Below are positions 6,441 through 55,021 of a stretch of DNA of 64,000 nucleotides, piece by piece. The stretch's first letter is position 1; each line of letters opens with the position of its first letter. Origin of the DNA: a virus; UHGV virus genome UHGV-1378817; one strand, 5' to 3'. The translations under genes and the position numbers were made by a program. Below the pieces are notes generated by a model. It worked only from the letters and a program-made list of their open reading frames with translations, had not been told where the DNA came from and did no database searches.

Positions 6441-7997
6441 TTAATTTTCCATGTTGGATATGGAATTATCTCTGGTTGATGACATCTTAGAAGTGCCGTT
6501 GCCAGTGGATCCTGCAGCCATTCCATCACCAGCCCTACTAATGTCCTGGCCCAAGAGCTTCATCAGCTCTTCCTGATCCATGTCCTCGTCAAATCTTTCA
6601 TCAAACCCGCCTACTTCAAGAATCTTATTAATTACTGCAGGAGTTTTTGGCAAGTAACCTACAGCACCGATCCTCTGGACAAACTTGGAGAAGCTCTCCA
6701 TATCCACTTCTTCAATCAGACCAGGTTTCAGTTTAGGCATATCATCATCTTCAAGGATGATACCATTCAATGCCAGAAGCTGTGGAATAAGATCTTTATT
6801 GAAGGCCTCAGTGATAATATCTATATCACGCTGAACAAAATGACCATGGATAGACTGTTTTGACTCAGACAGAGAGAAGGACCCAACGTTATCGTTACCG
6901 AGGTTAATAAAGCCAGCACCGAAACGGTCAAGAATCGCCTTCTTACGGGCATCAATCAAATCTTTAGTGGAATACTGCTTACCCATACCGTCAACCCCCT
7001 TCAGGGTCATGGAGTAAAGCTCTTTACCAGACTTATCTCTATCAGACGGAAGTATAAAGAAACTTTGCTCACCACTATGGGCGTTTGCTGCGTCAAGCAT
7101 AAGGTCTGCAACCATTCTCCCTTCCATTGAATTCGGGTCAATGCTGGCCTTGTTCAAAATATTGGAAGGAATTTTCAGCTCAAGCACACCACCAAGGTCT
7201 TTGGAACAGCCAACAACCTCAAGGTTTTCAATCAGAACTTTCTCACGGAAAGATCTGTAGCAACCTATCATCGGTGACACACCTGCAGGGTTAGATTCTG
7301 TTCCTGACAGGGTCATGAGCATAAGCTTTTTAGCAGGGATGAAAATTTCAGGCTCATTAAAGCCTTTTGAAGGCATTGCAGCAAGAGGTCCAGCCCAGCG
7401 TGCATTCTGAGTGTTTAGAAATGCATTAGGTGATTGATAAATACCTGTCAGTGTTCTACTATTCTTGTCAAAGACAAACGGCTCTGATCTGGACAAACTG
7501 GCCTGAGGTCGGAATGCAATTTTATCAATAAGAAGCATCCCGGTATATTTACCTTCTTTCTCTCTGCGGTATACTTTCTCAAACAGTGAAAAACCATACT
7601 CGTTAAAGGTAGCTGCGCTTCTTGCAATATCTCGAAGAGTTTGTTGGTTTGCCAAATTACGCAAAGAATACTCTATAAGCTCTGCAGCTTTCTTAGAGTC
7701 TTCACTTTTAACATTATAAAGGATCTTAAAATCATTGAATGCTTTCGTGATGAAAACATATTTTGTATCTAAGGCAGTAGCAACTGTGGAATCACATTTC
7801 ATAGTCTCCACTGTGGCAATCAGCTGAGGCCAACGCAATTCCTCAACCATCATAGATTGCGATTCTGCCATAATTTGGGAAAGTGCGCCAGAACCGATCT
7901 CACTCATACGAACATTATGAGTTGGTGCGCCTGCGTTCCCAGATTTATTCACAGTTTTGGCTGTGGCGTTGTGTTTCCTGCGGTTCTTTTTGGACAC
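6441..7997 (-). CDS. portal protein (putative)
   Basis: 518 aa ORF directly downstream of large terminase; size and position typical of portal. Confidence 0.55.
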   Translation of the reverse strand: MSKKNRRKHNATAKTVNKSGNAGAPTHNVRMSEIGSGALSQIMAESQSMMVEELRWPQLIATVETMKCDSTVATALDTKYVFITKAFNDFKILYNVKSEDSKKAAELIEYSLRNLANQQTLRDIARSAATFNEYGFSLFEKVYRREKEGKYTGMLLIDKIAFRPQASLSRSEPFVFDKNSRTLTGIYQSPNAFLNTQNARWAGPLAAMPSKGFNEPEIFIPAKKLMLMTLSGTESNPAGVSPMIGCYRSFREKVLIENLEVVGCSKDLGGVLELKIPSNILNKASIDPNSMEGRMVADLMLDAANAHSGEQSFFILPSDRDKSGKELYSMTLKGVDGMGKQYSTKDLIDARKKAILDRFGAGFINLGNDNVGSFSLSESKQSIHGHFVQRDIDIITEAFNKDLIPQLLALNGIILEDDDMPKLKPGLIEEVDMESFSKFVQRIGAVGYLPKTPAVINKILEVGGFDERFDEDMDQEELMKLLGQDISRAGDGMAAGSTGNGTSKMSSTRDNSISNMEN

Positions 7998-8099
7998 AAG
8001 CTTTACCCCTCAAAACAGTATAACAAAATAGCCCTCGTGTTAGAGGGCTAGTATCTCCGATTACTCTATTCTACCACATCTAATTAAGATTGGCAACAC

Positions 8100-9647
8100 T
8101 TAGATAAAACGCTTGAACATAGAAGGTGATGAGATTGATGGAATCACACAAGGAAGTGCTACCTCCTCTTTCTCCAGGAAATTAATCGCAGAAGCTACAC
8201 AGTCGGCCCAGTCGTCTTTTCTATTAAATGTTGATCTTTCCCCGTTGAATTTTTCAAGTTCAGTCAGAAATGCTTCCAGAGTATCAGGATGGAAACTGGA
8301 TTTTACAATCCTCACCATTCCTTGTTGGGCAAGATTGGCAAAAGGTGAGAACCTTGTCAGTTTAGATTTGTTGGAAGGCATTGGGTCTTCTTCAACCCTA
8401 AACCCTTCGGCGAGCAAGGATCTAGAGGAGGTTAAGAACTCACTCTTACCTGCCTGACCTGGGTCCACAGAGAAGACGATTATGCAATCATCACCATCAA
8501 ACTGCGCCTGTTTCCTGATGATCACATCTCGTTCACCAGCCTTTTTACAGAACTTGCCTTCCAGACCTGTGGAATACCTCCCGTCATCCACGTTCTCAGG
8601 ACAATAATCACCGGACAGGTAATAAAAGCCGTCGCTATCTTTACTTACCTTAACACTGGCGGTAAAGTCAGGAAACTTATTACCAGAAGTTCTCTCGGTT
8701 CCTGCCTTATCCCATGCCCTACAAGATACTGATCCAAGGGGCACTCTGTCGGCATCACGAAGGAAAGATCTTTGAAAATAGTTTGCACCCTCAGGCTTTG
8801 CAAACCAGTTACCATGGAGAAGCTGAGCTTTTTCAAGCTCGGGCAGACCTTCAAGGAAAGCAAGGTATTCTGGGTTGTCTCTTAAGCAGACAGGATTATC
8901 GAATATTGTTGCGCCTATAAACGAGAATGACAACGGTCTTGGCTTGATCTCCACACCCAGTCCGTTAACCGTGGTGTATTTCTCTATCAACTCTTCTTTA
9001 GAGTCTCCCCAGATAAATTCACCGTCGCGTCGGATAAAATATCTTTTCTTACCACATTTCTCCGGATCTGGATACCCTTCATCGTCCAACCACCATCTAA
9101 CCAGTTTGGCAAGCATGTGTTCTGAATCGGGGTTACAGCTGATAACCATTCTTGATGGATACTTTGACTGAGATCGCAGACGAGACATCAGATAGTCTAT
9201 CTGCTCCCATTCGAACTGCGTGCCCTCATCGAAGCAAACCATGGTATACTCAAGCCCTTGATGGTTAAGCTTATCTTGTACATACTCCATGTGGCAGTAT
9301 TTTACAACAGCTCCCTTTTTGCTTCTATCCCACTTGCCAGTGTTCGGATCAAACCGTGGAAAAATGAACTTATGATCCTTCTCTCTGAACTTTGGCTTAA
9401 TGTTTTCAGGCAGATCACTATAAATAGCTACTGCTTTAGGCCATAGTCCACCCTCACCTTCCAACTGTGGGGTTGTTCTTCGGAACATAACCACAGAGCT
9501 GTGGGGGTCATCAATAATTTTAAGTGGCATCAATTGCAAGAGGAACGACTTGCCAGACCCTGCGGCACCGCCGATTACCAAAATATCTGCATCGTTTTCG
9601 AGGATCATCTTCTGCTTTTCAGAACACGGTCCGTAAATCTTAGACAT
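8100..9647 (-). CDS. terL: terminase large subunit
   Basis: 515 aa; N-terminal Walker A VIGGAAGSGKS, central acidic motifs, C-terminal nuclease-like half; first gene of morphogenesis block. Confidence 0.8.
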   Translation of the reverse strand: MSKIYGPCSEKQKMILENDADILVIGGAAGSGKSFLLQLMPLKIIDDPHSSVVMFRRTTPQLEGEGGLWPKAVAIYSDLPENIKPKFREKDHKFIFPRFDPNTGKWDRSKKGAVVKYCHMEYVQDKLNHQGLEYTMVCFDEGTQFEWEQIDYLMSRLRSQSKYPSRMVISCNPDSEHMLAKLVRWWLDDEGYPDPEKCGKKRYFIRRDGEFIWGDSKEELIEKYTTVNGLGVEIKPRPLSFSFIGATIFDNPVCLRDNPEYLAFLEGLPELEKAQLLHGNWFAKPEGANYFQRSFLRDADRVPLGSVSCRAWDKAGTERTSGNKFPDFTASVKVSKDSDGFYYLSGDYCPENVDDGRYSTGLEGKFCKKAGERDVIIRKQAQFDGDDCIIVFSVDPGQAGKSEFLTSSRSLLAEGFRVEEDPMPSNKSKLTRFSPFANLAQQGMVRIVKSSFHPDTLEAFLTELEKFNGERSTFNRKDDWADCVASAINFLEKEEVALPCVIPSISSPSMFKRFI

Positions 9648-9934
9648 TAACCTCTCTCCTTTGGAAACAGTGTTCTAATATAGTCTTGCAAAATGATCAA
9701 TTTAGCTCTATCATTGCTACAAGACAGATTATTATCCCTCATAATGCCAGAATTCACTGCATCTGGAGCACCTTTCTTCAAAGGCATAGCTTTAGCAGGT
9801 GGTTTCATGGCACCTTCCGGGGGTTTAACAATCAACCTTCCTACATCCGGAGGGTCAATCTTGTATTCTCTCTCAACGCTGGTTGCACACCCACATAATA
9901 ACAAGCACACAATAAACAGTGTAGCAACTCTCAT
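9647..9934 (-). CDS. putative o-spanin (Rz1-like outer-membrane lipoprotein)
   Basis: 95 aa; signal peptide with Cys-containing lipobox-like LLLCGCATS, Pro-rich mature part; overlaps preceding gene by 4 nt. Confidence 0.5.
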   Translation of the reverse strand: MRVATLFIVCLLLCGCATSVEREYKIDPPDVGRLIVKPPEGAMKPPAKAMPLKKGAPDAVNSGIMRDNNLSCSNDRAKLIILQDYIRTLFPKERG

Positions 9935-10329
9935 CGATCCTCCTGATTGATACTCTCATTATAAATATCTATAAGCTGATCAGGGAGTGTTGACTTCTTG
10001 CCTTCAGGTGATTGGAGGTAGATAATCTGCTTTTCTTTACCTGCCCTCTCAGCCATATTTAATTTATCCTGCAGATCAGAAAGAGATTTTTCAAGGTTTT
10101 TAACCTCCTCTGCGTGGCCCATTTTAATTTTGTCGGCCTGCTTTTGTTGCTGATCAAGGATCCGTTCCCACTTTAACTCTGTTGCTGACACACCCTCTTG
10201 GTAGGCATCATTAAGCTTGGAGTTAAACCAATACACGGCCCCAAGATAAGCTGTACCTATCGCAGCTGCAAAAACTAAACCTTTTATGATCCCTCTATAC
10301 CTACTCAGCCATGTTAAAACTGAAATCAT
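9931..10329 (-). CDS. putative i-spanin (Rz-like)
   Basis: 132 aa; N-terminal TM helix (GLVFAAAIGTAYLGAVYWF) then charged coiled-coil; immediately upstream of o-spanin candidate. Confidence 0.5.
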   Translation of the reverse strand: MISVLTWLSRYRGIIKGLVFAAAIGTAYLGAVYWFNSKLNDAYQEGVSATELKWERILDQQQKQADKIKMGHAEEVKNLEKSLSDLQDKLNMAERAGKEKQIIYLQSPEGKKSTLPDQLIDIYNESINQEDR

Positions 10330-10434
10330 TTTAAGGCTCCAGAAACGAAAAAACCCCGCAGCTATACAGCTAACGGGGCGGGTTAAAATTGAGTAACCTA
10401 AATAGATCGAAACTAACTAAAAGGAGACTAATAC

Positions 10435-10704
10435 TTATCGAGGCACTCGGTGGATGATTCTAACAGTAACTGCATTTTCATTCATCAAGTATGCATCTAC
10501 ATCTCTGTAAATATAAAACTTCTGCTCACTATCAACAACACAAGCTACCGCCCCTTCAGAGTTGTCTTCAAAAAAGACCACCACTGCATCGCAGCTGAGT
10601 TCATGATATGACTCTCGAAGATTTACAGCCAGAGGATTGAAATCGTCACGAAAATCTACGGTATGGGTTGGATTTACACGCTCTACAATTTTAAGTGTAT
10701 ACAT
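10435..10704 (-). CDS. hypothetical protein
   Basis: ORF track 10435-10794 runs into tRNA-Pro; trimmed to ATG at 10704 (MYTLKIV...) with AAGGA SD. Confidence 0.4.
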   Translation of the reverse strand: MYTLKIVERVNPTHTVDFRDDFNPLAVNLRESYHELSCDAVVVFFEDNSEGAVACVVDSEQKFYIYRDVDAYLMNENAVTVRIIHRVPR

Positions 10705-10750
10705 TTTAAAGGTTCCTTTTGTTTGTATATGTTTAAAGTATAACTGAAAG

Positions 10751-10827
10751 TGGTCTCCACGGAGTGATTCGAACACTCGACCTCCTGATCCCAAATCAGG
10801 CGCTCTACCAAGCTGAGCTACGCGGAG
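10751..10827 (-). tRNA. tRNA-Pro (anticodon UGG)
   Basis: Cloverleaf read by hand: 7-bp acceptor, D arm GCTC/GAGC, anticodon arm CCTGA-TTTGGGA-TCAGG, T loop TTCGAAT, encoded CCA. Confidence 0.8.
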
Positions 10828-10838
10828 TATTTATTATT

Positions 10839-10913
10839 TGGTGGCCCTGGGTGGAATTGAACCACCGTCTGGCGATTATGAGTCGCTTGCTTGAACCTTC
10901 CAGCTACAGGGCC
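10839..10913 (-). tRNA. tRNA-Met or Ile2 (anticodon CAU)
   Basis: Acceptor GGCCCTG/CAGGGCC, anticodon arm GCGA-CTCATAA-TCGC, T loop TTCAATT, encoded CCA. Confidence 0.7.
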
Positions 10914-10914
10914 A

Positions 10915-10990
10915 TGGTGCTGATAGCAGGACTCGAACCTGCAACCTATTGATTACAAATCAATTGCACTACCAATTGTGCTACATCAGC
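10915..10990 (-). tRNA. tRNA-Thr (anticodon UGU)
   Basis: Acceptor GCTGATG, D arm GCAC/GTGC, anticodon arm ATTGA-TTTGTAA-TCAAT, T loop TTCGAGT, CCA. Confidence 0.75.
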
Positions 10991-10995
10991 AAAAA

Positions 10996-11094
10996 GGTGC
11001 TAGGTGATGGAATCGAACCACCTATGTATTCAACGACTACCTCGTCTATTTTCAGGATTAAAAATCCTCGCCCTTGCCAAAGGGCTTACCTAGC
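10996..11094 (-). tRNA. atypical long tRNA-like element (~99 nt; anticodon loop reads UUU with 4-bp stem; long extra arm)
   Basis: Acceptor GCTAGGT/ACCTAGC and canonical T arm GGTGG-TTCGATT-CCATC are clear; anticodon arm and a 30-nt variable region are non-canonical; 3' end ACC not CCA. Confidence 0.35.
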
Positions 11095-11192
11095 TCAGTA
11101 TGTTGACCATGTTGCTAGTCGGCGATGACGACTGTAACATTTGATAATCCGGTTCTGCTTCCGGCTTTCGCTTAATTACAAGGTCAACAATA

Positions 11193-11283
11193 TGGCTGAG
11201 GGTAATGGAATCGAACCATCATCGAGTCATCCTCAACGGGACGGTTTTCAAGACCGCTTGAGCACCATTGCTCCCTACCCTCA
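11193..11283 (-). tRNA. tRNA-Ser (anticodon UGA), type II
   Basis: Acceptor TGAGGGT/ACCCTCA, 3-bp D stem, anticodon arm GCGGT-CTTGAAA-ACCGT, long variable arm, T loop TTCGATT, CCA. Confidence 0.75.
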
Positions 11284-11397
11284 TTTATAAACAATACTGA
11301 TAATGACACTGATTTTCGAGCAGTTAGTGACTAGTATAAACGACGATAAATATCAATGCCATTATCTGTATGATTTATGCATTTAAAACTATAAATT

Positions 11398-11484
11398 TGG
11401 TGGGGAGTGGTGGAGTCGAACCACCCGAGTCGCAATGACAATAGATTTACAGTCTACACCGCTACCTCTACGGGATAACTCCCC
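11398..11484 (-). tRNA. tRNA-Tyr (anticodon GUA), type II
   Basis: Acceptor GGGGAGT/ACTCCCC, anticodon arm GTAGA-CTGTAAA-TCTAT, variable arm, T loop TTCGACT, CCA. Confidence 0.75.
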
Positions 11485-11488
11485 AATT

Positions 11489-11563
11489 TGGCACCCCGTA
11501 CTGGACTCGAACCAGTGTCAACGGCTTAGAAGGCCGCTGCTTTATCCACTAAGCTAACAGGGC
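11489..11563 (-). tRNA. tRNA-Arg (anticodon UCU)
   Basis: Acceptor GCCCTGT/ACGGGGT (two G-U pairs), D arm GCTT/AAGC, anticodon arm GCGGC-CTTCTAA-GCCGT, T arm ACTGG-TTCGAGT-CCAGT, CCA. Confidence 0.7.
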
Positions 11564-11659
11564 ACTGGGTGGCTTTCTTTTACACCTTAGCCGCCAGAAA
11601 AGGTGGGAGACCATGTTTACAATATTACACTGTTAAGCAAAGTTTGTCAAGAAAATATT

Positions 11660-11998
11660 TTAGCTATTGCCAACAGGTTGTATTTCTGTGGTAAATGGCA
11701 TAAAAGGTGCTGGTTTTTCAGCCTCTTCTACTACCACCTCTTCCTCTTCACCAAACATCTCATCATATTCTTCCTGCATTCGGTCTGCCTTATCAAGAAC
11801 ATACTCTGCAATGCTTTGACGAATATTTTGTTTGGTTTTCGGGTCCAACATCAGCTCTCTTAAAACTTTGTGAGCTTCTGGAACCATCGCTATAAAAGAT
11901 TCCTTCATATCAAGGATGTTCTTCTCTAGCTGAATGGCGTTGGACTCCTCTTTCAGAGGTCTGCCTCTACGGCGACGCTTTTTAGTTGTATCCGCCAT
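11660..11998 (-). CDS. small basic/acidic DNA-binding-like protein (AT-hook-like KKRRRRGRP motif)
   Basis: ORF track 11660-12151 trimmed to ATG at 11998 (MADTTKKRRRRGRPLKEES...) with GGAGG SD; acidic C-terminal tail. Confidence 0.45.
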   Translation of the reverse strand: MADTTKKRRRRGRPLKEESNAIQLEKNILDMKESFIAMVPEAHKVLRELMLDPKTKQNIRQSIAEYVLDKADRMQEEYDEMFGEEEEVVVEEAEKPAPFMPFTTEIQPVGNS

Positions 11999-12009
11999 GT
12001 TTCCTCCAT

Positions 12010-12021
12010 TATCACGTGATA
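12010..12021. promoter_or_regulatory. 12-bp perfect palindrome TATCACGTGATA just upstream of AT-hook-like gene
   Basis: Perfect dyad 12 nt upstream of the SD of the 11660-11998 gene. Confidence 0.35.
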
Positions 12022-12039
12022 GGTGGATTTTATCATAGC

Positions 12040-12260
12040 AAATACTGATTGTCAAGTTCGCCGCAGGGTGGTATTCCCTGCGACTTGCCCAGCGTCCTGG
12101 ACCAGCAAGACCCAACAAGTGGGTTTTCCAGCTATACCCATTACCGCACACAGGCTCGACCTTATTACAGGTTGGCTGGGGTCACATCGTCATGTGCTGG
12201 CTGCCCCTACCATTTTAAGTGTGGTGCACTATCAAGCCCTCTAAGGGGAACTCAGCCTTC
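12040..12260. other. GC-rich ORF-poor structured segment (candidate ncRNA)
   Basis: Local GC visibly well above flanks; several perfect hairpins (CGCAGGG-tggtatt-CCCTGCG; ACCCA-acaag-TGGGT; CACA-tcgtca-TGTG); only short multi-frame ORFs without SD. Confidence 0.3.
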
Positions 12261-12346
12261 TCCGAACCCTGTTTCAAAGCATCCGGAGATAAAGCCATCA
12301 AATTCATCTTTAAATTGGATATTCATCATAATACACGAAAACAACC

Positions 12347-12589
12347 TCATTGTAAAGCACAAATAAATAAAACATACTTAATTTGTTTGTTATCAGGCTC
12401 AGGGTAGAAGTAGAAGATCTTGCTATCACCGATCTGAACACCACCATCCCAACAGCATAGCCCATAACCCGTATTCATACAAGCTAAGTCGTTGGCAAAA
12501 TCTATTGCATCATCCAGTGCACGAAATTCACCTTCATCTTCTAAATAATCCTCATTCATGGAACGAAAAACGAGCTTAACCTTAAACAT
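12347..12589 (-). CDS. hypothetical protein
   Basis: 80 aa ORF, co-oriented with neighbours. Confidence 0.4.
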   Translation of the reverse strand: MFKVKLVFRSMNEDYLEDEGEFRALDDAIDFANDLACMNTGYGLCCWDGGVQIGDSKIFYFYPEPDNKQIKYVLFICALQ

Positions 12590-14501: not shown

Positions 14502-15056
14502 TTACTCCCCGCTGTCAATAGCAAGACTCATTGCAATACTGTATGCCTCTTCTAATGGTAAGAGTCTACCCCACACATCCCAACCGACATCAAACTGCCT
14601 GCCAAACAACTGTTGTGTGGTTCCGTGAGCATGACCGAACAGTTGTACTGATCCGTGAGGCTTTCTGTTCCACTTTGCAAACTGGTAATGGCTCATACAG
14701 ATCAAATTCTTGTTGTGGCGAAGCTCGTAATAATCTACAACCTCATGATAGAACTCTTTCATAATTCTGACAGTCGTCCTTGTGTCATGGTTGCCACGAA
14801 CAAGAATAATATGTCCGTTCAACATATTTAGAATATCTGGAAGTAAGTTGTTGATATTTTTATCAGTAGTGCACGCAATATCTCCCAAGTGGAACACAGT
14901 GTCTGCAGGTGACACAACAGAGTTCCACTCGGCGATGATTCCCGCATTCATACTGTCAAGATTGTGATCATACTGAGATCTGTGTTTTTGACATGAATCA
15001 AACTCCATGACCCGCTGGTGGAGAAAGTGTGTGTCGCTTGTTACAAAGTATTTCAT
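14502..15056 (-). CDS. calcineurin-like metallophosphoesterase (candidate 2',3'-phosphatase/phosphoesterase)
   Basis: ORF track trimmed to ATG 15056 (MKYFVTSDTHF...) with GAGGA SD; motifs SDTHF (D-x-H), LGDIA (GD), GNHD, GHAHG. Confidence 0.7.
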   Translation of the reverse strand: MKYFVTSDTHFLHQRVMEFDSCQKHRSQYDHNLDSMNAGIIAEWNSVVSPADTVFHLGDIACTTDKNINNLLPDILNMLNGHIILVRGNHDTRTTVRIMKEFYHEVVDYYELRHNKNLICMSHYQFAKWNRKPHGSVQLFGHAHGTTQQLFGRQFDVGWDVWGRLLPLEEAYSIAMSLAIDSGE

Positions 15057-15063
15057 ACATTCC

Positions 15064-15474
15064 TCATTTAAGTTTAATGCAGTTTTTAAGCTGGCGTTCC
15101 ATACGATCCACAACCCTGTCTGGAACATCATGAATGCTTTTATTACCGTGTCGGTTTTCAACCACGATTACGGTATAATTATACCCATGGCTGATTGCCA
15201 TGTCAACATATTCTTGCACATGTTTTTCTTTTGTAAACGTATTACTTACCACGATACGGTCGTATCCCATACGCATCATATCTTCTACGTTATCTTTGCA
15301 CCATTTTGCTGCAAGTGTTACTTTACTTGCATCCCAGTTGTAATTGCCGTCATCGTCGTACCAGAACATGTCGTTCTCAAAATGTGGATACAGACCTTCT
15401 AAAGATAGCGCATTTGCCAGTGTTGATTTGCCAGACCCTGGTAGACCACGCACGATATATAGCATTTTAGACAT
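15064..15474 (-). CDS. polynucleotide kinase-like P-loop kinase
   Basis: Trimmed to ATG 15474 (MSKMLYIV...) with GGAGG SD; Walker A GLPGSGKST; layout resembles T4 Pnk kinase domain (IVVSNTF..., VPDRVVDRM). Confidence 0.6.
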   Translation of the reverse strand: MSKMLYIVRGLPGSGKSTLANALSLEGLYPHFENDMFWYDDDGNYNWDASKVTLAAKWCKDNVEDMMRMGYDRIVVSNTFTKEKHVQEYVDMAISHGYNYTVIVVENRHGNKSIHDVPDRVVDRMERQLKNCIKLK

Positions 15475-15592
15475 AGTAATCCTCCGTTTTAATTTCAAAG
15501 ATAGTATACCTAACTGTTTTGTTAATTTCAAGTGTTGACACTAGGTTATTTGTGTGGCAGGATAGACTGACAAAATGACAAATGAGGAACGT

Positions 15593-16510
15593 ATGATGAA
15601 GTATTTTAATGCAGACGACCTAGTTGACAAAGGTCTTGTAACCAGTAGATATTACCCAGATCTTGGGTTAAAGATCTATAAATACGCCAGAAAAGTATTT
15701 TACAACAATTTATGGCATTTGTCCCCTCGTTTACTGGAGTGCCGAGGCATTGTTGTCGGTAATGAAGGAAATGTTGTGGCATGGCCCTTCACAAAAGTGT
15801 TTAACTTGGGAGAAAACTCCACCAACCTGCCTGACAATAAGCTTGTGACGGCGGTAGAGAAAAAGAACGGATTCCTTGGTGTGGTATCATCTCATAAAGG
15901 TGAACTATTGTTCTCAACAACCGGATCTCTTGATTCTCCATATTGTAACCTTGCAAAGGAAACCATCCAGGAGCAATGCGGTAATTTAGATCTTATCAAG
16001 AAGGTTATGGGCAATGAAAACATGACATTCATGTTTGAAATTTGTCACCCTTCAGATCCGCATATTGTTCAGGAAGATCATGGCGCATATTTGATAGGTT
16101 GCAGGTATAATGATTCTGGAATAATGCTACCAGAGGCAGCTTTAGATGGGATTGCCAAATACCTTGGTGCAAAACGTCCTCACACTGTGCGTGAAATTCC
16201 GTTCAGCTATGCAAAAGAATTGGCTGCAGAAACAAGAGGTGAAGGGTATATGATTCGTAAGCCTTACTATCCTTATGATCTGCAGCTGAAGATCAAGTCT
16301 CCATACTATCTGGCACGGAAGGCCGTAATGAGGGGTAAAGCTTGGAAGATTTGGGATGATGATATCTTTAAACGTGTTGACGAAGAGTTTTACGGCATGG
16401 TAAACTTCATTCGCAACAACTACACAGAGGATGTATGGAACTGCCTCCTGGAGCAGGAACGCCGTGAGATACTTGACTACTATTTCCACAACGAGGACTA
16501 TATGCAATGA
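15593..16510 (+). CDS. RNA ligase-like nucleotidyltransferase
   Basis: Motif I K-x-N-G (EKKNGFLG), motif IV EGYMIRK, motif V LKIKSP; start moved to ATG 15593 with GAGGA SD; divergent from kinase/phosphatase pair. Confidence 0.55.
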   Translation: MMKYFNADDLVDKGLVTSRYYPDLGLKIYKYARKVFYNNLWHLSPRLLECRGIVVGNEGNVVAWPFTKVFNLGENSTNLPDNKLVTAVEKKNGFLGVVSSHKGELLFSTTGSLDSPYCNLAKETIQEQCGNLDLIKKVMGNENMTFMFEICHPSDPHIVQEDHGAYLIGCRYNDSGIMLPEAALDGIAKYLGAKRPHTVREIPFSYAKELAAETRGEGYMIRKPYYPYDLQLKIKSPYYLARKAVMRGKAWKIWDDDIFKRVDEEFYGMVNFIRNNYTEDVWNCLLEQERREILDYYFHNEDYMQ

Positions 16511-16857
16511 AGAAGTTGATTGTGTGGCTGGATGACTTGAGAGACCCGTCAAATTATGGGCTCCCAGACGCTATTTGGCTAAAGAATTCCTCCGAGTTTA
16601 TGGATTTTATTAACGATAATAGAAAGCTCTACAGACGCGTTTCTGAGTGGCATATGGACAACGACCTTGGAGAGGTATTAGAAGGGTACGATTGTCTATC
16701 TATGTTGGAGGAAAAATTTGTATTTGGTAAGCCTCCTGTAGTTGACAACGTGAAGATTTTCGTGCATACTTCTAACCCATCAGCTGCTCGTAAATTCATG
16801 CTTGCAGCTGACTCGTTTAAAAAGTTTGGAATAGAGATTAAACAAAACATCTACTGA
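16507..16857 (+). CDS. hypothetical protein
   Basis: 116 aa; ATGA start/stop overlap with RNA ligase gene; N-terminus MKKLIVWLDDLRDP. Confidence 0.45.
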   Translation: MKKLIVWLDDLRDPSNYGLPDAIWLKNSSEFMDFINDNRKLYRRVSEWHMDNDLGEVLEGYDCLSMLEEKFVFGKPPVVDNVKIFVHTSNPSAARKFMLAADSFKKFGIEIKQNIY

Positions 16858-16865
16858 GGACACTT

Positions 16866-17627
16866 ATGCGACGACTTATTATTATCTCCGGTGCTGGTTT
16901 GAGCGCTGAATCTGGTATTCCCACTTTCCGATCTGGTAGCACTGCAATGTGGGAGAATTTCAGCATCGATGAGGTGTGCAACATCCACACCTTTGCCAAG
17001 AACTACTATAAGGTGCATGACTTTTACAATGCACGTCGTGTAGCTCTAGGCAGTGTTGAGCCTAACCTTGCACATCTTCGGATCGCTGAGTGGTATTCCC
17101 GCTGGTCTGGTCGTGTGATCAACCTTACCACCAATGTAGATGATTTGCTGGAGCGTGCTGGTGTAAAACATGAAGATATTTTACATGTCCACGGGTATTT
17201 GCCAGAAATAGTCTATGAGGACGATGAAGGAAGTGACGTCATTAAGGACATTGGATACTCTGAGGTAGACGCAGGAAAGTATACCTGGGTTAAGCCTAAT
17301 GTGGTGTTCTTCGGAGAAGTAGCTCCGAAGTATACAGACATGTATGACCTGTTGACTTCTCTTACGAGCAATGATATGGTTATCCTTGTAGGGTGCTCCA
17401 ACACAGTTATCAATTTTAACTGGGAGCTATTCCCTGCCTGCAATAAGGGAACAAAACTGCTGATCGTTAACAAATACGACTCACAGCAGCTAGGGGAGAA
17501 TGGCATTTCACGTAGTGATATTTACCAATATGAGGATCGCGGCATCCCAGTTTGGTTTAACGGGGCGGTTGATGCTTTCTCTGATAAAACATTCATTGAG
17601 ACCGTAGAAAACTTTATGGAACTTTAA
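16866..17627 (+). CDS. Sir2-family NAD-dependent deacylase/ADP-ribosyltransferase
   Basis: Sirtuin motifs GAGLSAESGIPTFR, TTNVDDLLERAG, catalytic HG (LHVHGY), VILVGCSNTV; no CxxC zinc module seen. Confidence 0.75.
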   Translation: MRRLIIISGAGLSAESGIPTFRSGSTAMWENFSIDEVCNIHTFAKNYYKVHDFYNARRVALGSVEPNLAHLRIAEWYSRWSGRVINLTTNVDDLLERAGVKHEDILHVHGYLPEIVYEDDEGSDVIKDIGYSEVDAGKYTWVKPNVVFFGEVAPKYTDMYDLLTSLTSNDMVILVGCSNTVINFNWELFPACNKGTKLLIVNKYDSQQLGENGISRSDIYQYEDRGIPVWFNGAVDAFSDKTFIETVENFMEL

Positions 17628-17640
17628 AAGGAGACCTTTA

Positions 17641-18354
17641 ATGCTGAATACCAAATTAATTGACAACCTGGAAAAACTGTCCCAACCTGAAAACTACCTT
17701 TGGTCTGCCAACTGGGTGGAAAACTGGAACCGTGTGGCAGCTAAAGTGAAAAAATCATACACACCATTCGAATTACAGCTTAGCTTCATTGAGGAAGAGT
17801 TCAATGAAGTTTTGGAAGAGCTGGAGAAAGGTGATGGCGGAGATCACCTGCTAAAAGAGGCCTGCGATCTTCACGTTGTCACAAGTTATGCCGCTTATCT
17901 TGTTAATGATAATCACGAAAAGTGGTCAAACCTGTTTGATAATCCACAGGGTCTTAAGTTCAAGATCGGTGAGTTCTATGATACACTGATCGCTGCGAAA
18001 AACACCTCTAAGCAAAAAGCGTCCGCTTACCGCTTAGCAGAGTTGTCAACAGCTTTGCTGTTCCAGCTTCGCGGCGATGTGTGCGGGATGATGCGTAAGG
18101 TTCTCAAATCGAATGACAGCAAGTTTGCACGGGTCAACCATCTACGGTATTCACACGGTGCCAGTGCAGATATGCCTGCTGAACAACTCATCGAGTTGGA
18201 GATTAAAGATCTTGAGCGACGCTTTGATGGTCGATATGAAGGTTTTGTTGCTAAGGAAGAATTCTACAACGGTAATAAAGTTATCATATTCCTTGACAGC
18301 AAAGGTAAGATCATGAAGCCTTCGAGCTTCAAGGATGTAACAGAGTATATTTAA
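17641..18354 (+). CDS. MazG-like nucleotide pyrophosphohydrolase domain protein
   Basis: N-terminal EEEFNEVLEELEKGD...EACDL acidic motifs resembling MazG/HisE fold; 237 aa with an extra C-terminal domain. Confidence 0.4.
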   Translation: MLNTKLIDNLEKLSQPENYLWSANWVENWNRVAAKVKKSYTPFELQLSFIEEEFNEVLEELEKGDGGDHLLKEACDLHVVTSYAAYLVNDNHEKWSNLFDNPQGLKFKIGEFYDTLIAAKNTSKQKASAYRLAELSTALLFQLRGDVCGMMRKVLKSNDSKFARVNHLRYSHGASADMPAEQLIELEIKDLERRFDGRYEGFVAKEEFYNGNKVIIFLDSKGKIMKPSSFKDVTEYI

Positions 18355-18360
18355 CAACAT

Positions 18361-18387
18361 AGCCGGGATTACCCGGCTTTACTTGTT
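18361..18387 (+). terminator. intrinsic terminator-like hairpin
   Basis: AGCCGGG-att-ACCCGGCT followed by TTTACTTGTT, 7 nt after stop of 17641-18354. Confidence 0.45.
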
Positions 18388-18726
18388 GTGGAAAGTATGC
18401 AAGTGAGGAAGATAGTTATGTACAAGCACTCTAGAGATCTTGAAAACGATGCTGTGTTTGGGGATCAGATGAAAGAGTTGGTTAAACTCATAGGCAGGAT
18501 AGAGGATAAGTTTGACACTAAGATCTACATCGACAGCAAAGTATTCAACCACAAAATATGGACAAATCTGTGTGTTGGACTACATGGAGATAAAGATGTG
18601 GTAAATTTAGTTGTAATTAAGTTCATAGTGTGGCAGAATAAAACTATAAATTATTACGATCCACACCTGCTTGTTTACCCGATAAAAGACCTATTAGATA
18701 AGGAGGACTGCAGTGCCGTTATTTAA
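18388..18726 (+). CDS. hypothetical protein
   Basis: 112 aa ORF. Confidence 0.35.
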   Translation: MESMQVRKIVMYKHSRDLENDAVFGDQMKELVKLIGRIEDKFDTKIYIDSKVFNHKIWTNLCVGLHGDKDVVNLVVIKFIVWQNKTINYYDPHLLVYPIKDLLDKEDCSAVI

Positions 18727-18982
18727 TCTTGCTAAACCTGTAGAAGCACACCAGTTTGACGGAAGCTCTTCATCAGTATCTGATCTGCAACGGTGGATTG
18801 ATACAGGTGTGTTTACATCGTCACCTGTTCGTACCAGAGATCTTCGTCGCATGTGTGAGCTTGTCGAGCCGTTTGGTAACCTGGTCTTGTACCAGGGAGA
18901 TTGGTTAGTTGACTTTATGGGAGACTGGTTGGTAATGAGTAAAGAAGAGATGTTTAACATTTTTAAGGAAGAGGCCGAGTAA
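18713..18982 (+). CDS. hypothetical protein
   Basis: GTG start with AAGGAGG SD 6 nt upstream; 89 aa. Confidence 0.4.
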   Translation: MPLFNLAKPVEAHQFDGSSSSVSDLQRWIDTGVFTSSPVRTRDLRRMCELVEPFGNLVLYQGDWLVDFMGDWLVMSKEEMFNIFKEEAE

Positions 18983-20265
18983 TGCATCAGATCAAAACAA
19001 CACTGTACGCACTGAACAAAGATGGCAGCTACCAACAGTGGAAAGTATTCACGGATGGTGATAAGGTTATCGTAGAGTTTGGCAAGCTTGATGGTAAACT
19101 GCAATACAAAGAGACGGTATGCACGCCTAAGAACGTAGGTCGTGCCAACGAGACTACCGCTGAGCAACAGGCCGAGCTTGAGGCTATTAGCAAGTGGGAA
19201 AAACAAGTCCGTCTTGGGTATGTTGAGAATATGGAAGATTGCGAGCAGGGTGTTGACCTTTTACCCATGCTGGTGCATGACTACCTGAAGCGTGGCAAGG
19301 CTCTTAAATTACCTTGCTGGATCTTGCGTAAGTTAGATGGCCTTCGTCTACTTGTTGTTTTCCAGAATGGTGAGCCCAAATTTATTTCCCGTGGTAATAA
19401 GTCCTACCCTATTCAAGGAAAGCTTCTGGAGCAACTTCGCTCTTTCCACCTCACCACTGGGATTAAACAGCTCGACGGAGAGCTCTATATTCATGGTCTG
19501 CCTCTGCAGAAAATAGTTTCTCTTGCTAAACGATGGCGCACACAGGAAGAAATTCAGGCCGAGATCGATAAAGACTACAAGGCAGATAAAAAACGCCGTC
19601 AGGCTGCTATTAAGGCAGGTTTAGCAACATACAAAAACTTCAATAAGATGGACATTCCTGTTGATGTTGAGCCTGTTCGTGATGATTTGCGTTACGGAGG
19701 GTATTGCAGCTACGACTTAGAGTATCATATTTTCGATATCCCTAGCGATAAGGTGTGGTGGGATCCTGAAACAGAGTCTGGGCGCTGTAAGGATCTTATG
19801 GAGGCAAATGGTGCCATTTCTTCTTTGATGCTTGATCATATTAAGGTTGTTGATGCAGAGCTTGCATATACAGTTGATCGGTGCGAAGAGTCTGTTGGTA
19901 TATTTATGTCTGAGGGATATGAAGGTACCATTATGCGTAACTTCTGTGGTAAGTATGAGTATGGTCAGCGAACATCTGAAGCATTGAAATGGAAAAAGTT
20001 CAACGACGCAGAGGTGAAAGTTATTGACGTTGAGAAAGATAAGAATGATGAAGGTGTTCTTATCTGTGTTGACAAGGAGGGTGTTGTTGTTAAAATGAAG
20101 ATGAAAGGCACGCACGAGGAGCGTAGCTATGACAGGATGCAGGAAATGATCGGCAAGTTTGTCACCTTCAAATATCAAGCAAGGACAGAAGACAACAATT
20201 ACCAATTCCCTGTCGGTATCTGCGTCCGAAATGTTAACCCGGACACTTGGGAGGTGCTGGAATGA
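18982..20265 (+). CDS. ATP-dependent DNA ligase
   Basis: Motif I KLDGLR (K-x-D-G), EGTIMR motif IV-like, LKWKK motif V-like; 427 aa. Confidence 0.65.
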   Translation: MHQIKTTLYALNKDGSYQQWKVFTDGDKVIVEFGKLDGKLQYKETVCTPKNVGRANETTAEQQAELEAISKWEKQVRLGYVENMEDCEQGVDLLPMLVHDYLKRGKALKLPCWILRKLDGLRLLVVFQNGEPKFISRGNKSYPIQGKLLEQLRSFHLTTGIKQLDGELYIHGLPLQKIVSLAKRWRTQEEIQAEIDKDYKADKKRRQAAIKAGLATYKNFNKMDIPVDVEPVRDDLRYGGYCSYDLEYHIFDIPSDKVWWDPETESGRCKDLMEANGAISSLMLDHIKVVDAELAYTVDRCEESVGIFMSEGYEGTIMRNFCGKYEYGQRTSEALKWKKFNDAEVKVIDVEKDKNDEGVLICVDKEGVVVKMKMKGTHEERSYDRMQEMIGKFVTFKYQARTEDNNYQFPVGICVRNVNPDTWEVLE

Positions 20266-51381: not shown

Positions 51382-51687
51382 ATGGCTAAATCTAAAGTTG
51401 AACTGTTCACCTCTCTTCCTTCTGACACTGCAGAACGTGATCGCCTTCGCAAAACAATCGAAGAGCTGGTGGAACTCCAGCTTCAGATTAAAGATCTGAA
51501 AGATGCCATCAAGGATATCATTCTCGTTGAGAAGCAGGATCATCTGTATTCTCCTAAATTCATCAAATCTCTGGTGGCTACAGAGTTCGATATTCGCTAT
51601 GAGGCTGAAAAACGTCGCGCTAAAATCGAAGAAGAGGTTGAGCACATGTCTGAGGCAGACATTCTGTTCAAACGCTCTGTAGAATAA
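51382..51687 (+). CDS. hypothetical protein
   Basis: 101 aa helical ORF. Confidence 0.4.
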   Translation: MAKSKVELFTSLPSDTAERDRLRKTIEELVELQLQIKDLKDAIKDIILVEKQDHLYSPKFIKSLVATEFDIRYEAEKRRAKIEEEVEHMSEADILFKRSVE

Positions 51688-51692
51688 TGACA

Positions 51693-51725
51693 AAGAGAGG
51701 GGCCTGGGCCCCTCTTTCACTATTT
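51693..51725 (+). terminator. intrinsic terminator-like hairpin
   Basis: AGAGGGGCC-tgg-GCCCCTCT followed by TTCACTATTT, directly after 51687 stop. Confidence 0.5.
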
Positions 51726-51741
51726 GCAAAAGGAACCAGCT

Positions 51742-52068
51742 ATGAGAATGCCAATCACTGTGAAAGAGCTAAATGAACGTGATGCAGGTGGTCTATGGCC
51801 TGCACGAAAAATCCGCTGCGTCTATATGAAAGAGAATCTTGAACATCTTGATCAACAGATCAAGGTCGGTGATATTTTTGAGGTCTTCTATTCCAATCGT
51901 CGTAACTGGGAAACCATTCAGCCTTCTGGTTTTGTTCTTGCCAAACTTGACACTGGAGAAGTGATTATCCCTGGGTTGGATATTGTCTTCGAAATTATCC
52001 AGGAGTGGGATCCGGATAAGATTAGATACGAAGAATTATTCGGTAAAGGTATTATCAAACCTGTGTGA
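51742..52068 (+). CDS. hypothetical protein
   Basis: ATG 51742 with AAGGA SD. Confidence 0.4.
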   Translation: MRMPITVKELNERDAGGLWPARKIRCVYMKENLEHLDQQIKVGDIFEVFYSNRRNWETIQPSGFVLAKLDTGEVIIPGLDIVFEIIQEWDPDKIRYEELFGKGIIKPV

Positions 52069-52076
52069 GGTGGATT

Positions 52077-52376
52077 ATGTCTACAAAGGCGGCTAAATAC
52101 TCCTACATGCCATCAACCTCTGCAGAGGTAGACTTTAGTTTCGATGTGTTTCCACTGTTTGAGGCGGTTCTGGCATACCCAACAATACTATCTACTCCTG
52201 AATCACTTGTGCCTGTTAAGTTGCAGAACGCTATGCATTCTATGCACTACAACAATAAATGTAGGCACAGATGGTGTCAGGACGAGGAAAAAGATTTGGA
52301 CAGTTTGAGAGATTTTGACAGTCACCTTTTGACACCTTTCAGCTACTCCAACCTTGATAAGCCCTCATGGGTATAG
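52077..52376 (+). CDS. hypothetical protein
   Basis: ATG 52077 with GAGGTGG SD. Confidence 0.4.
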   Translation: MSTKAAKYSYMPSTSAEVDFSFDVFPLFEAVLAYPTILSTPESLVPVKLQNAMHSMHYNNKCRHRWCQDEEKDLDSLRDFDSHLLTPFSYSNLDKPSWV

Positions 52377-52531
52377 CAAAATATCAAATTTAAGACACCT
52401 AGGACGCTCTGTGGCGTCCTTTTCTTTATCTGGTGCACGATTGCATACCTTGGACAGGTAATCTCATTATAGAGCGCTTTAGAAAGAATTTGACTGTTTT
52501 CCTAAACCACCAACATCTTGAGGTATCATTT

Positions 52532-52753
52532 ATGAAAATTGTTCTATACGACGATAACGATATTGCTCTCAGTACTGTATATTTTGAAGATGATGATCTG
52601 CCAGATTTTCTACGTGTCTCCACATTTGCTGCAGAATACGGTGTGAGCCGTCAGGCAATGCATAAGTACCGAGAGTATCAGAATTGCTCATGGGCTGAGA
52701 CCTTTATGCACTTTATCCAACGTAAGCAGGCTCTGGACCGCAAAAAGCTTTAA
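52532..52753 (+). CDS. hypothetical protein
   Basis: ATG 52532 with GAGGT SD (track start is far upstream). Confidence 0.4.
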   Translation: MKIVLYDDNDIALSTVYFEDDDLPDFLRVSTFAAEYGVSRQAMHKYREYQNCSWAETFMHFIQRKQALDRKKL

Positions 52754-52853
52754 GTGTATATACTTTTTATTTCGAGCGTAGCGAGAACGCACGTCCGTTT
52801 TGACCCAAATCACCATACGCTCGGATTTTAACCAAACCCTCGCGGCGTTTCTG

Positions 52854-52882
52854 TTGACACATTACCGCTCTCGTGATAGTAT
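52854..52882 (+). promoter_or_regulatory. sigma70-like promoter
   Basis: TTGACA, 17-nt spacer, TAGTAT. Confidence 0.5.
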
Positions 52883-52902
52883 CCACACATCGTTTGGAGA
52901 AT

Positions 52903-53004
52903 ATGGGATACACAATGAGAACATTGTCCGAAGTTTTAGTGGTGATCCTGATGATCATTACGTCCATAGCGGCTGTTGCCGGAATACTCACGGGTGGAAC
53001 ATGA
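52903..53004 (+). CDS. small membrane peptide (33 aa)
   Basis: MGYTMRTLSEVLVVILMIITSIAAVAGILTGGT; GGAGA SD; ATGA overlap with next ORF; below ORF-track cutoff. Confidence 0.35.
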   Translation: MGYTMRTLSEVLVVILMIITSIAAVAGILTGGT

Positions 53005-53213
53005 TCAACACGCATGCATCTGAAGAGACATCTGAAGGAGTGACCATATGTCCATTGGCTGATCCAGTGAAAGGGGAAAACTTCGATTCTGAAGATTCTC
53101 CATCTTCGCTCCAGATAGATCCTGAGGCTGATGACTTGACGTGGGGAGACATCGTAGATATCTGGTTCTCTATTATGCCTGAGCACGAAGAGTTCAGAGG
53201 TGGTAGACTATGA
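53001..53213 (+). CDS. hypothetical acidic protein
   Basis: ATG 53001 overlapping stop of the small TM ORF; the track ORF 52800-53213 begins upstream of the promoter so was trimmed. Confidence 0.35.
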   Translation: MINTHASEETSEGVTICPLADPVKGENFDSEDSPSSLQIDPEADDLTWGDIVDIWFSIMPEHEEFRGGRL

Positions 53214-53334
53214 AGCACCGAGCCCACACAGGTTCCTCATGCTAAAGCATGGCCTGAAGAGGCAAACGTGCATAATTCCCGTGCATTGGAACGTATAAAA
53301 CCCTGTTCACACTCTCATTTCCAGAGGAGATTTC

Positions 53335-53550
53335 ATGAAGATAGAAATATTTGGTGGGGCTGACAACACTCGTGGCCTGATTTACCTTGAATTTGATGAA
53401 TCATACCTGCCAGAGGTGTTAAATATAGACTCTGTTGCTGAGGCTTTGGGAGTAAACCCTAAAGAACTCCACTCTTGTGCTGAGATCGATGGTTGGGAAG
53501 AGACCATGAACATTGATTTCAGTGAAGTAGAGGACGAACCGCTGGACTGA
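53335..53550 (+). CDS. hypothetical acidic protein
   Basis: 71 aa; MKIEIFGG N-terminus; last plus-strand gene before non-coding region. Confidence 0.4.
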   Translation: MKIEIFGGADNTRGLIYLEFDESYLPEVLNIDSVAEALGVNPKELHSCAEIDGWEETMNIDFSEVEDEPLD

Positions 53551-53679
53551 CACACAATTAGCTGCCCGGCTAAAGTGCTGGAAGCGCACCTATAACACAT
53601 CTTTCAACTAAATTTCCTACCACCACAATCACTTACCTCCAACACATGACTGTTTGCTTGTTTAGTGAGCAGTCATGCC

Positions 53680-53707
53680 TTGACATTCTTGCCTATCCTG
53701 ATAAAAT
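53680..53707 (+). promoter_or_regulatory. sigma70-like promoter firing into ORF-poor region
   Basis: TTGACA, 16-nt spacer, TAAAAT; no convincing ORF downstream. Confidence 0.4.
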
Positions 53708-55021
53708 TAAGTTCTTCTCTTTTCTTTTACCGAGTAATTCGGGTTTTCTGTTCTCTTCGGTTTGAAGGGGTATGGAGATACACCTGAGTGAACAGGGTGA
53801 ACAACCGAACCATTGGCTATGGCATTAGCATGGCGAAGCGGACGGGTGACGAAAGAGGGGCCGGAGGACACCAGTCACTGCCATATGATATATGGGTGAT
53901 AACCTGAAGAGTCTGAATAAGTGTTTAAGTACCAGTCAGAGGAAAAGGTGAATGGTAGCCGAAGGGGGAGGGGGGTTTCTTGTATCTTTAATTTGTATAT
54001 TATGTATACACTTGTAAACCAATATCATCTAGATCTGTTTACCACACAAAGTGGATAGAGACAAATATTACCTATTAAACTTGAATTATTTATAGAAAAT
54101 ACCACAACACCACTTAAGTCTTTGATTTTACACACAAATCTTACAGATATTCAACCTCCATATTTAACATACCTGTAACATATTCCATACTCTACCTGCC
54201 TGATCAATTTCCCCAACTACATCCCTCATATTTCCCCTGTCTGTACTACCCTGCCCCACCGGGAGTCCCGTCATATCTGGCTTTCCAGCAAATATCACAC
54301 CCACAAATATCATGCCTGAAGAGGGTTTCATCCCATAATACCTGCCTTGCCTGAAGAGCGCTTCATACACCACGTAAATTTTTTAATTGACCTCCCCTGC
54401 CCCGCCGGAGAGGTTGGCTTTTCCCACACAGACCTGAAGAGTCAGCCAGAAATATCTGAATAGGCCCAGTTCTACCACGATTTTGACCTGACCTACAGGA
54501 GCGCTGCCAGGCGGACGAAATGGGAATACTTCTCATTCTTATAACAATTCTCAAATATCGAGGCAGTGAGGCAAATTAATAGGCCAGGCCGTTCACACAG
54601 TGGCACAACATTTGCAACCTATCTTGTGGGGGTGAATGAGAATACCTATCATTGTGAGAACCATTATCATTACGGGCAATTTAACATAATACCCATTATG
54701 CGCACCACTGGTGATACATACAGGGATTGATAACACGAGTTACAGTTTACGCATATAACAATCATATTTCTTACTATTTGTGTGGGATATAGTTAGCAGC
54801 CGATAGATTAGATATTGACCTGTGGACTTCCAACCGTCTAGACGTCTAAGCGCCCACACAACAAGGCTTATACATACATTACTGAATGTAAACAGGGCCG
54901 CAAAAATGCTACCATACCAGTTTGTAAATTTTCATGCAGCACTTGACAAAGAGGAGGAAAACTTGTCTGACACAATGTCACACAATATGACACAATAACG
55001 GCTGTTACCATTCCATATCTC

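Follow-up and report, generated by a model that had tools for sequence, protein, structure and literature searches.

The 64,000-nucleotide stretch analyzed here (the window; UHGV virus genome UHGV-1378817) comes from a Vequintavirus, an rV5-like myovirus of Escherichia coli, and carries an operon encoding an Rnl1-type RNA ligase, a cREC domain protein, a Sir2-family protein (sirtuin), and a MazG-like pyrophosphohydrolase, next to a divergently transcribed kinase and metallophosphoesterase pair. We give roughly even odds (a probability of about 0.5) to the reading that in rV5-like phages these six genes form a cassette for the repair of RNA breaks. A broader claim, that damaged RNA ends are what the cassette acts on, we consider fairly probable; the specific assignment of the sirtuin as a 2'-phosphotransferase is tentative. 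The genes, the neighborhood, and the leading hypothesis are already known as a published prediction: Iyer, Burroughs, Anantharaman, and Aravind described a Type-2 sirtuin-centered phage RNA-repair neighborhood, with Escherichia phage V5 and Proteus phage Mydo as prototypes, in which the sirtuin is listed together with cREC, a T4-like tRNA ligase, a nucleotide kinase, a MazG pyrophosphatase, and in some cases a calcineurin-like phosphoesterase (Iyer et al., 2022, Viruses 14:1977, section 3.7.3; PMC9503650). All of these components are present in the window, itself rV5-like, with no substantive difference. In that work the sirtuin was predicted to be KptA/Tpt1-like, removing RNA 2'-phosphates, and the partner phosphoesterases were proposed to open the cyclic phosphate or to process the resulting ADP-ribose cyclic phosphate (PMC9503650). 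The RNA-repair model of our analysis matches the one reached independently there; what we add is the operon boundaries, the loss of zinc ligands in the sirtuin, its retained Y-x-x-R motif, the tracking of the ligase cluster by cREC and the MazG-like protein, and a reading of published essentiality data.

Locus layout and partner enzymes

The cassette and its flanking signals are as follows.

14502-15056, - strand: calcineurin-like metallophosphoesterase, 184 amino acids (aa), counted from the start that relatives use; candidate enzyme for healing 3' ends
15064-15474, - strand: P-loop kinase of polynucleotide-kinase type, 136 aa; candidate 5'-OH kinase (Pfam, PHROG, Walker A)
15475-15592, no strand: intergenic region from which the kinase/phosphoesterase pair and the ligase operon diverge; contains TTGACA
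15593-16510, + strand: Rnl1-family RNA ligase, 305 aa (open reading frame opens at 15575); first operon gene (Pfam, PHROG)
16507-16857, + strand: cREC domain protein, 116 aa, beginning MKKLIVWLDDLRDP (open reading frame; Pfam; ATGA overlap with the ligase stop)
16866-17627, + strand: Sir2/sirtuin, 253 aa, class-III-like, without zinc ligands (open reading frame; Pfam; clade alignment)
17641-18354, + strand: HisE/MazG-superfamily pyrophosphohydrolase, 237 aa, with a family-specific C-terminal extension; final operon gene
18361-18378, no strand: G+C-rich hairpin of 7 pairs (6 G-C) with a T-rich tail behind it; likely operon terminator

We read RNA ligase, cREC, Sir2, and MazG-like as a four-gene operon because the cREC start overlaps the RNA ligase stop codon by 4 nucleotides (nt; ATGA), the following gaps are 8 nt (cREC to Sir2) and 13 nt (Sir2 to MazG-like), and a terminator lies downstream. 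Shine-Dalgarno sequences are present in both junctions, GAGGA spanning the cREC stop codon and AAGGAG in the 13-nt gap, and the terminator hairpin begins 7 nt past the MazG-like stop, at the same site as an ARNold terminator annotated in phage Gotham. The Gotham annotation also places a promoter for the minus-strand genes in the region equivalent to 15475-15592, and it is at this divergent intergenic region, between 14-16 kb and 16-18 kb, that the sign of the GC skew flips. An original prediction made from the window alone had singled out three tightly packed plus-strand genes at 16507-18354; their open reading frames lie exactly as it placed them, and all three match protein families far beyond chance. 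It described Sir2 as translationally coupled to the small protein upstream; these two genes are 8 nt apart, and the true ATGA overlap is that between the ligase and cREC. Over its full length, the segment 15500-18800 shows 98.8% identity to the Escherichia phages vb_EcoM_bov10K2 and RudolfGeigy (GenBank), and 121 phage records match it.

The RNA ligase, kinase, and metallophosphoesterase genes all lie within 2 kb, so that an RNA healing-and-sealing gene set is encoded together. The ligase matches Pfam RNA_lig_T4_1 with 56 bits (cut-off 28.3) over model positions 1-227 of 227, and PHROG 562 with E 1e-66; at 39 bits it does not reach the T4 RnlA equivalog cut-off (242 bits). The kinase has the Walker A sequence GLPGSGKST and matches Pfam AAA_33 (E 1e-10), PHROG 2071 (E 9e-59), and PHROG 505 'polynucleotide kinase' (E 6e-10), in line with the annotation of its counterpart in phage Bas54 as a polynucleotide kinase. 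Single-sequence searches of the PDB with the ligase and with the kinase gave no match. The metallophosphoesterase matches Pfam Metallophos (E 1e-6) and the phosphoesterase family PHROG 547 (E 2e-52), contains the motifs DTH, GD, GNHD, and GHAH, and is identical to bas54_0211 at 176 of 184 residues. A known analogue of this trio is the T4 Pnkp and Rnl1 pair, which counters the PrrC anticodon nuclease and likewise combines 5' kinase and 3'-end phosphoesterase functions with an Rnl1-family ligase. In the window, however, two different proteins serve as kinase and phosphatase, the latter being a metallophosphoesterase like that of Clostridium thermocellum Pnkp rather than the HAD/DxD enzyme of T4, the ligase scores far below the T4 RnlA equivalog cut-off, and there are sirtuin, cREC, and MazG partners that T4 does not have.

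The 116-aa protein, which the original prediction left uncharacterized, belongs to the cyclic-phosphate processing receiver domain family (Pfam PF20274, cREC_REC; 55 bits, cut-off 27), and its close homologues all carry the same precomputed cREC domain. Its fold is that of a receiver (CheY-like), and the acidic residues that close strands 1 and 3 are conserved (D9/D10 after strand 1, D51 ending strand 3), together with T88 ending strand 4 and the family-specific invariant residues R12, D53, H87, S89, N90, P91, and K96. No histidine kinase is found in its neighborhood within the window; it is linked to an RNA ligase instead. A single-sequence PDB search returned chance matches only. The domain was defined by Iyer et al., 2021, as a predicted cyclic phosphodiesterase (PMC7824862), and we found no experimental report on cREC activity in the literature searched. 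Distant cREC-like loci from IMG/VR and bacterial genomes (L072-L109) have unrelated or unannotated neighbors and did not help to separate the two roles proposed for cREC below; one of them adjoins a histidine-kinase-like ATPase and may be an ordinary receiver.

For the 237-aa protein, the single sequence matches PHROG 671 'nucleotide pyrophosphohydrolase' (E 6e-22) and misses the Pfam threshold (PRA-PH, 13.7 bits against a cut-off of 21.3, E 0.085). A single-sequence PDB search gave no match; an AlphaFold2 (AF2) model built from an 11-sequence alignment is mostly helical and of low confidence (pLDDT 61.6), and Foldseek with this model found nothing in the PDB at E <= 0.001, its weak matches including dimeric dUTPases, HisN2, and a MazG. 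Because the model was poor and gave no significant fold match, we turned to a deep HMMER profile search of 1.8 billion representative proteins, which yielded 166 relatives, and to Pfam matches at the level of the family. Among the 69 relatives that were aligned, 49 match PRA-PH (HisE) and 16 match MazG, and a profile from this family finds the structures of HisE (1yvw) and MazG (3crc) through the EExxE...D metal site. In that motif, E53 and D76 are invariant and E52 and E56 at least 90% conserved; N158, K161, K223, and K226 are also invariant, the last two lying in a family-specific C-terminal extension with a conserved GKIMKP. The earlier MazG-like call stands; as the window's protein itself falls below the Pfam threshold, the assignment is based on the family and on the EExxE...D motif.

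The sirtuin clade and its recurrence beside RNA-repair genes

The sirtuin matches Pfam PF02146 (SIR2) with 96.2 bits (cut-off 24) over model positions 1-178 of 180. As originally predicted, it has the full set of NAD-binding and catalytic motifs: in an alignment of 29 clade members that are 50-99% identical, G9-A-G11, S16, G17, F21, R22, N90, D92, the catalytic H109, F148-F149-(G)-E151, G176-x-S178-N179, and N202 are invariant or nearly so. With E. coli CobB and human SIRT5 it shares GAGxS, PTFR, FYNARR, N-x-D, the catalytic His, and FGE. The FYNARR sequence, which contains the class-III Y-x-x-R motif, is identical to that of CobB; Y54 and R57 align with SIRT5 Y102 and R105, and Y54, R57, and R58 are invariant in the clade. 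In SIRT5 and CobB, the Y-x-x-R motif binds the carboxylate of succinyl or malonyl groups.

The clade differs from CobB and SIRT5 in several respects. It has TTNVD where canonical sirtuins have TQNID, a change of Gln to Thr. It is restricted to phages and linked to RNA-end enzymes. And it has lost the four zinc ligands, as we conclude from the segment between H109 and K143, which contains 0-1 Cys, and from the lack of a CxxC anywhere in the protein (29 of 29 sequences). The original prediction had described the protein as having no zinc-ribbon module. The ligands are indeed gone, but the stretch that leads from the catalytic His to the FGE strand remains, with the same length as in CobB and alignable to it, and 'zinc-less remnant' or 'zinc ligands lost' is therefore the better description.

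To compare contexts, we used 58 IMG/VR loci that encode this sirtuin clade. In 11 of them, RNA ligase, kinase, phosphoesterase, MazG-like protein, and DNA ligase all occur with Sir2 within 8 kb, and cREC is also present in 8 of these 11. Proteins of the full-cassette loci are only 45-60% identical, and their genes stand in differing orders; an ATP-dependent DNA ligase is found in every cassette locus. Another 28 loci are T5-like, T5 itself among them, and have a HAD_SAK_2 'Swiss-army-knife RNA repair' phosphatase directly downstream of the sirtuin. In a 607-kb phage (L057, 5582-8708), an Rnl1 ligase lies two genes upstream of the sirtuin, with an arginase-family gene between them. In a 279-kb phage (L058, 7721-12642), genes for RlaP and a Thg1-like tRNA-repair protein lie within ~3 kb of a more distant sirtuin (42% identical) that is flanked by DUF4326 and nucleoside 2-deoxyribosyltransferase-like genes, which is a different NAD/RNA-repair combination. 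Given the cassette, the T5-like, and the two jumbo-phage contexts, the link between the sirtuin clade and RNA-end enzymes spans phage groups that share no synteny. In the Phapecoctavirus-like locus L033, the sirtuin's neighbors have no Pfam matches.

The cassette of phage Bas54, whose proteins are 95-99% identical to those of the window, has been covered by transposon mapping of essentiality on E. coli K-12 (preprint 10.1101/2025.11.20.689424). The MazG-like protein, sirtuin, RNA ligase, kinase, and phosphoesterase are non-essential on this host, and cREC is classed as 'intermediate', with 16 of 21 TA sites hit (10.1101/2025.11.20.689424). In being dispensable on ordinary E. coli K-12, the cassette resembles T4 Pnkp and Rnl1, and the insertion tolerance of its six genes is as expected if, by analogy with T4 pnk/rnlA, it were a conditional counter-defense module. 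A role in phage-host conflict, which the original prediction had proposed, is likely.

Candidate repair scheme and rival explanations

A cassette of this kind would act on tRNAs or other RNAs that have been cut by host RNases (anticodon nucleases, toxin RNases) leaving a 2',3'-cyclic phosphate and a 5'-OH. The kinase would phosphorylate the 5'-OH, the metallophosphoesterase and/or cREC would open or remove the 2',3'-cyclic phosphate, the ligase would seal the break, the sirtuin would take off the residual 2'-phosphate with NAD+, and the by-product would be disposed of by cREC, as a cyclic phosphodiesterase, and by the MazG-like enzyme, as a pyrophosphatase. We infer every substrate and the order of the steps; what is observed here is which domains the proteins contain, that their active sites are conserved, how the operon is built, and that the sirtuin clade recurs beside RNA-repair genes. 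The proposed logic is the same as in fungal and plant RNA repair by Trl1 and Tpt1/KptA, where opening of the cyclic phosphate yields a 2'-phosphate, an Rnl1-type ligase joins the ends, the 2'-phosphate is removed in an NAD+-dependent reaction, and the cyclic ADP-ribose phosphate by-product is hydrolyzed. The window differs in that no cassette protein matches the ART-fold Tpt1/KptA family in Pfam, so that a sirtuin, whose Rossmann fold is unrelated, would substitute for it, and in that the predicted cyclic phosphodiesterase is cREC rather than a 2H enzyme. The likeness of the sirtuin to Tpt1/KptA is thus a functional analogy only. A shared chemistry is plausible, in which a substrate oxygen would attack C1'' of NAD+ and the 2''-OH of the ADP-ribose would then form a 1'',2''-cyclic species, and the anion pocket of the Y-x-x-R motif (Y54/R57) could hold a phosphate. 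Taken jointly, these proposals would make this protein the first RNA-acting sirtuin, a convergent Tpt1-like 2'-phosphotransferase that re-uses its Y-x-x-R pocket for phosphate, with cREC as a new cyclic-phosphodiesterase fold and the MazG-like enzyme clearing the ADP-ribose by-product; we regard this combination as possible but doubtful.

If the predicted chemistry is true, the substrates of sirtuins would extend to nucleic acids, removal of RNA 2'-phosphates would have arisen on two occasions, and one branch of the receiver domains would be enzymes; large virulent coliphages of the rV5-like, T5-like, and jumbo groups would have in common a counter-defense arm that repairs tRNA, next to the tRNA genes they carry. 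Tests are straightforward, since the proteins are small, E. coli K-12 is a host for the phages, and there is a saturated transposon library of the near-identical Bas54. As a finding of a genome scan it adds little, the genes, neighborhood, and hypothesis being in the literature already, but it is an attractive experimental target.

Several points weigh against this scheme. Kinase, metallophosphoesterase, and ligase already make up a complete T4-like pathway that leaves no 2'-phosphate behind, so the need for a 2'-phosphotransferase is not obvious. The nearest relatives of the sirtuin in sequence are true protein deacylases. In four phages of ~150 kb, cREC, phosphoesterase, MazG-like protein, and DNA ligase, with or without Rnl and kinase, lie 31-33 kb from Sir2, so cREC and the MazG-like protein track the ligase cluster rather than the sirtuin, a point that is new as far as we can tell and that weakens the idea that they process a Sir2 product. 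In two of these four phages (L067 and L071), no Rnl or kinase was detected and the rest is kept: cREC, metallophosphoesterase, ATP-dependent DNA ligase, and MazG-like protein at 7900-12500, with the sirtuin on the same contig. This raises the possibility that cREC and MazG also work with the DNA ligase or with a ligase of the host. Many of the compared phages are related, so part of the common neighborhood is inherited synteny. In the literature searched, we found no biochemical or genetic test of the phage sirtuins, of cREC, or of any other component. Finally, the Bas54 preprint reports competitive-fitness assays on two clinical E. coli strains, and the accessible part of its resampling table (K-12 versus clinical strain) lists no cassette gene as conditionally essential, with an adjusted p of at least 0.75 for those cassette genes that have a visible value (10.1101/2025.11.20.689424).

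Of the alternatives, the one that survives best is that the sirtuin is a CobB-like NAD+-dependent deacylase (deacetylase or desuccinylase) that resets the acylation of host or phage proteins, its adjacency to RNA-repair genes being an inherited order. Databases annotate it in this way, its nearest solved structures are human SIRT5 and E. coli CobB (E 2e-21), and the catalytic residues, the FGE substrate strand, and the class-III Y-x-x-R motif are all conserved. Yet the protein is well short of the curated NCBIfam cut-offs for CobB (NF001753 / NF040867; 122 against 243 bits for the subfamily and 103 against 320 bits for the equivalog) and fails all NCBIfam equivalog models, for which reason we rejected a reading of it as a CobB orthologue. 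The zinc cysteines that support the peptide-binding small domain have been lost throughout the clade, which adjoins RNA-end enzymes in four phage groups that have no common gene order. We judge a deacylase to be rather unlikely on this balance.

The original prediction had proposed that the sirtuin and the nucleotide pyrophosphatase deplete or protect NAD, degrade immune signaling nucleotides, counter Thoeris, DSR, or CBASS, or modify host proteins. It had missed the RNA-repair genes around the trio, and the evidence points to RNA-end repair rather than to these proposals. A version in which Sir2, cREC, and the MazG-like protein form an NAD/ADP-ribose module that destroys the signals of Thoeris, CBASS, or similar systems, or manipulates the NAD pool, would agree with the dispensability of the cassette on a laboratory host, with the hydrolysis of nucleotides by MazG-family enzymes, and with the processing of ADP-ribose derivatives that the literature predicts for cREC and nucleotide pyrophosphatases. 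The sirtuin does share Sir2-type Rossmann NAD+ binding and a setting in phage-host conflict with the defense SIR2 NADases (ThsA, DSR1/2, SIR2-HerA, SIR2-pAgo). Unlike these, however, it is encoded by the phage rather than the host, it consists of one domain to which no sensor is fused, it has no partner ATPase and no HerA, TIR, SLOG, or pAgo among its neighbors, and it matches no defense-type SIR2 in PADLOC, the only line being a sub-threshold 13.6-bit match to an unrelated candidate model. For want of a PADLOC match we rejected a defense-type NADase; the protein also belongs to the CobB/SIRT5 type (PF02146) and not to SIR2_2. A sirtuin moreover consumes NAD rather than a signal, and this one carries neither a sensor nor a sponge domain. 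Even where Sir2 lies 31-33 kb away, cREC and MazG are found in the RNA/DNA ligase cluster, and the operon opens with an Rnl1 RNA ligase. Such a module is improbable, and it is the RNA ligase, kinase, and phosphoesterase context, together with the T5-like and jumbo-phage partners, that leads us to favor RNA-end repair over it.

The sirtuin might instead be an ADP-ribosyltransferase whose targets, such as a host protein of translation or RNA processing or the 5'-phosphate ends of RNA or DNA, would be marked and not repaired. Its NAD-binding and catalytic residues are intact, and Tpt1 enzymes can cap 5'-phosphates with ADP-ribose. Some sirtuins ADP-ribosylate proteins, but known sirtuin ADP-ribosylation systems have Macro, ARG, or NADAR genes nearby and this one has none, an argument already made by Iyer et al., 2022 (PMC9503650). 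The context also gives no hint of a protein target, and we hold this activity to be about as improbable as the NAD/ADP-ribose module. Least likely, and pure speculation, is that Sir2 deacylates aminoacyl-tRNA modified by GNAT-type toxins (TacT/AtaT-like) or another RNA acyl adduct, an idea drawn from deacylase chemistry, the tRNA-repair neighborhood, and the seven phage tRNA genes, against which stand the lack of direct evidence, partner enzymes that all handle phosphates, and the fact that, to our knowledge, no sirtuin acts on acyl-aminoacyl-tRNA.

tRNA genes and other neighboring features

Seven tRNA genes lie on the minus strand at 10751-11563, 3 kb from the cassette, and correspond to Pro, Met/Ile-CAU, Thr, an odd Lys, Ser, Tyr, and Arg-UCU. 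A single counter-defense strategy may combine spare tRNAs with tRNA repair. The odd gene, at 10998-11094 (minus strand), encodes a 97-nt tRNA with the anticodon loop UUUUUAA, that is, Lys(UUU), and an extra arm of ~26 nt. It scores 35.5 bits in Rfam over the full tRNA model; ARAGORN gives tRNA-??? with a four-base anticodon, and the Bas54 equivalent is annotated as tRNA-Lys. It is unusual for a tRNA-Lys to be class-II-like. Anticodon nucleases of the PrrC and PARIS types target tRNA-Lys.

Downstream of the operon terminator lie the following genes.

18418-18726 and 18713-18982, + strand: two small overlapping open reading frames with no Pfam match (PHROG 7684 and 14585, of unknown function)
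18982-20265, + strand: ATP-dependent DNA ligase (Pfam DNA_ligase_A_M and DNA_ligase_OB_2)

Homologues of the two small open reading frames occur in the cassette loci of most sampled 135-150 kb phages, in varying gene order, and they may be further cassette components. Elsewhere in the window, repeat and open reading frame scans of ~51400-53900 brought up nothing striking. This segment lies near the peak of the cumulative GC skew and is collinear with a 2.5-kb stretch of Bas54 (92.8-95.3 kb) that has no annotated gene; the HIDEN-SEQ preprint (10.1101/2025.11.20.689424) mentions an intergenic region of ~2 kb that is free of transposon insertions.

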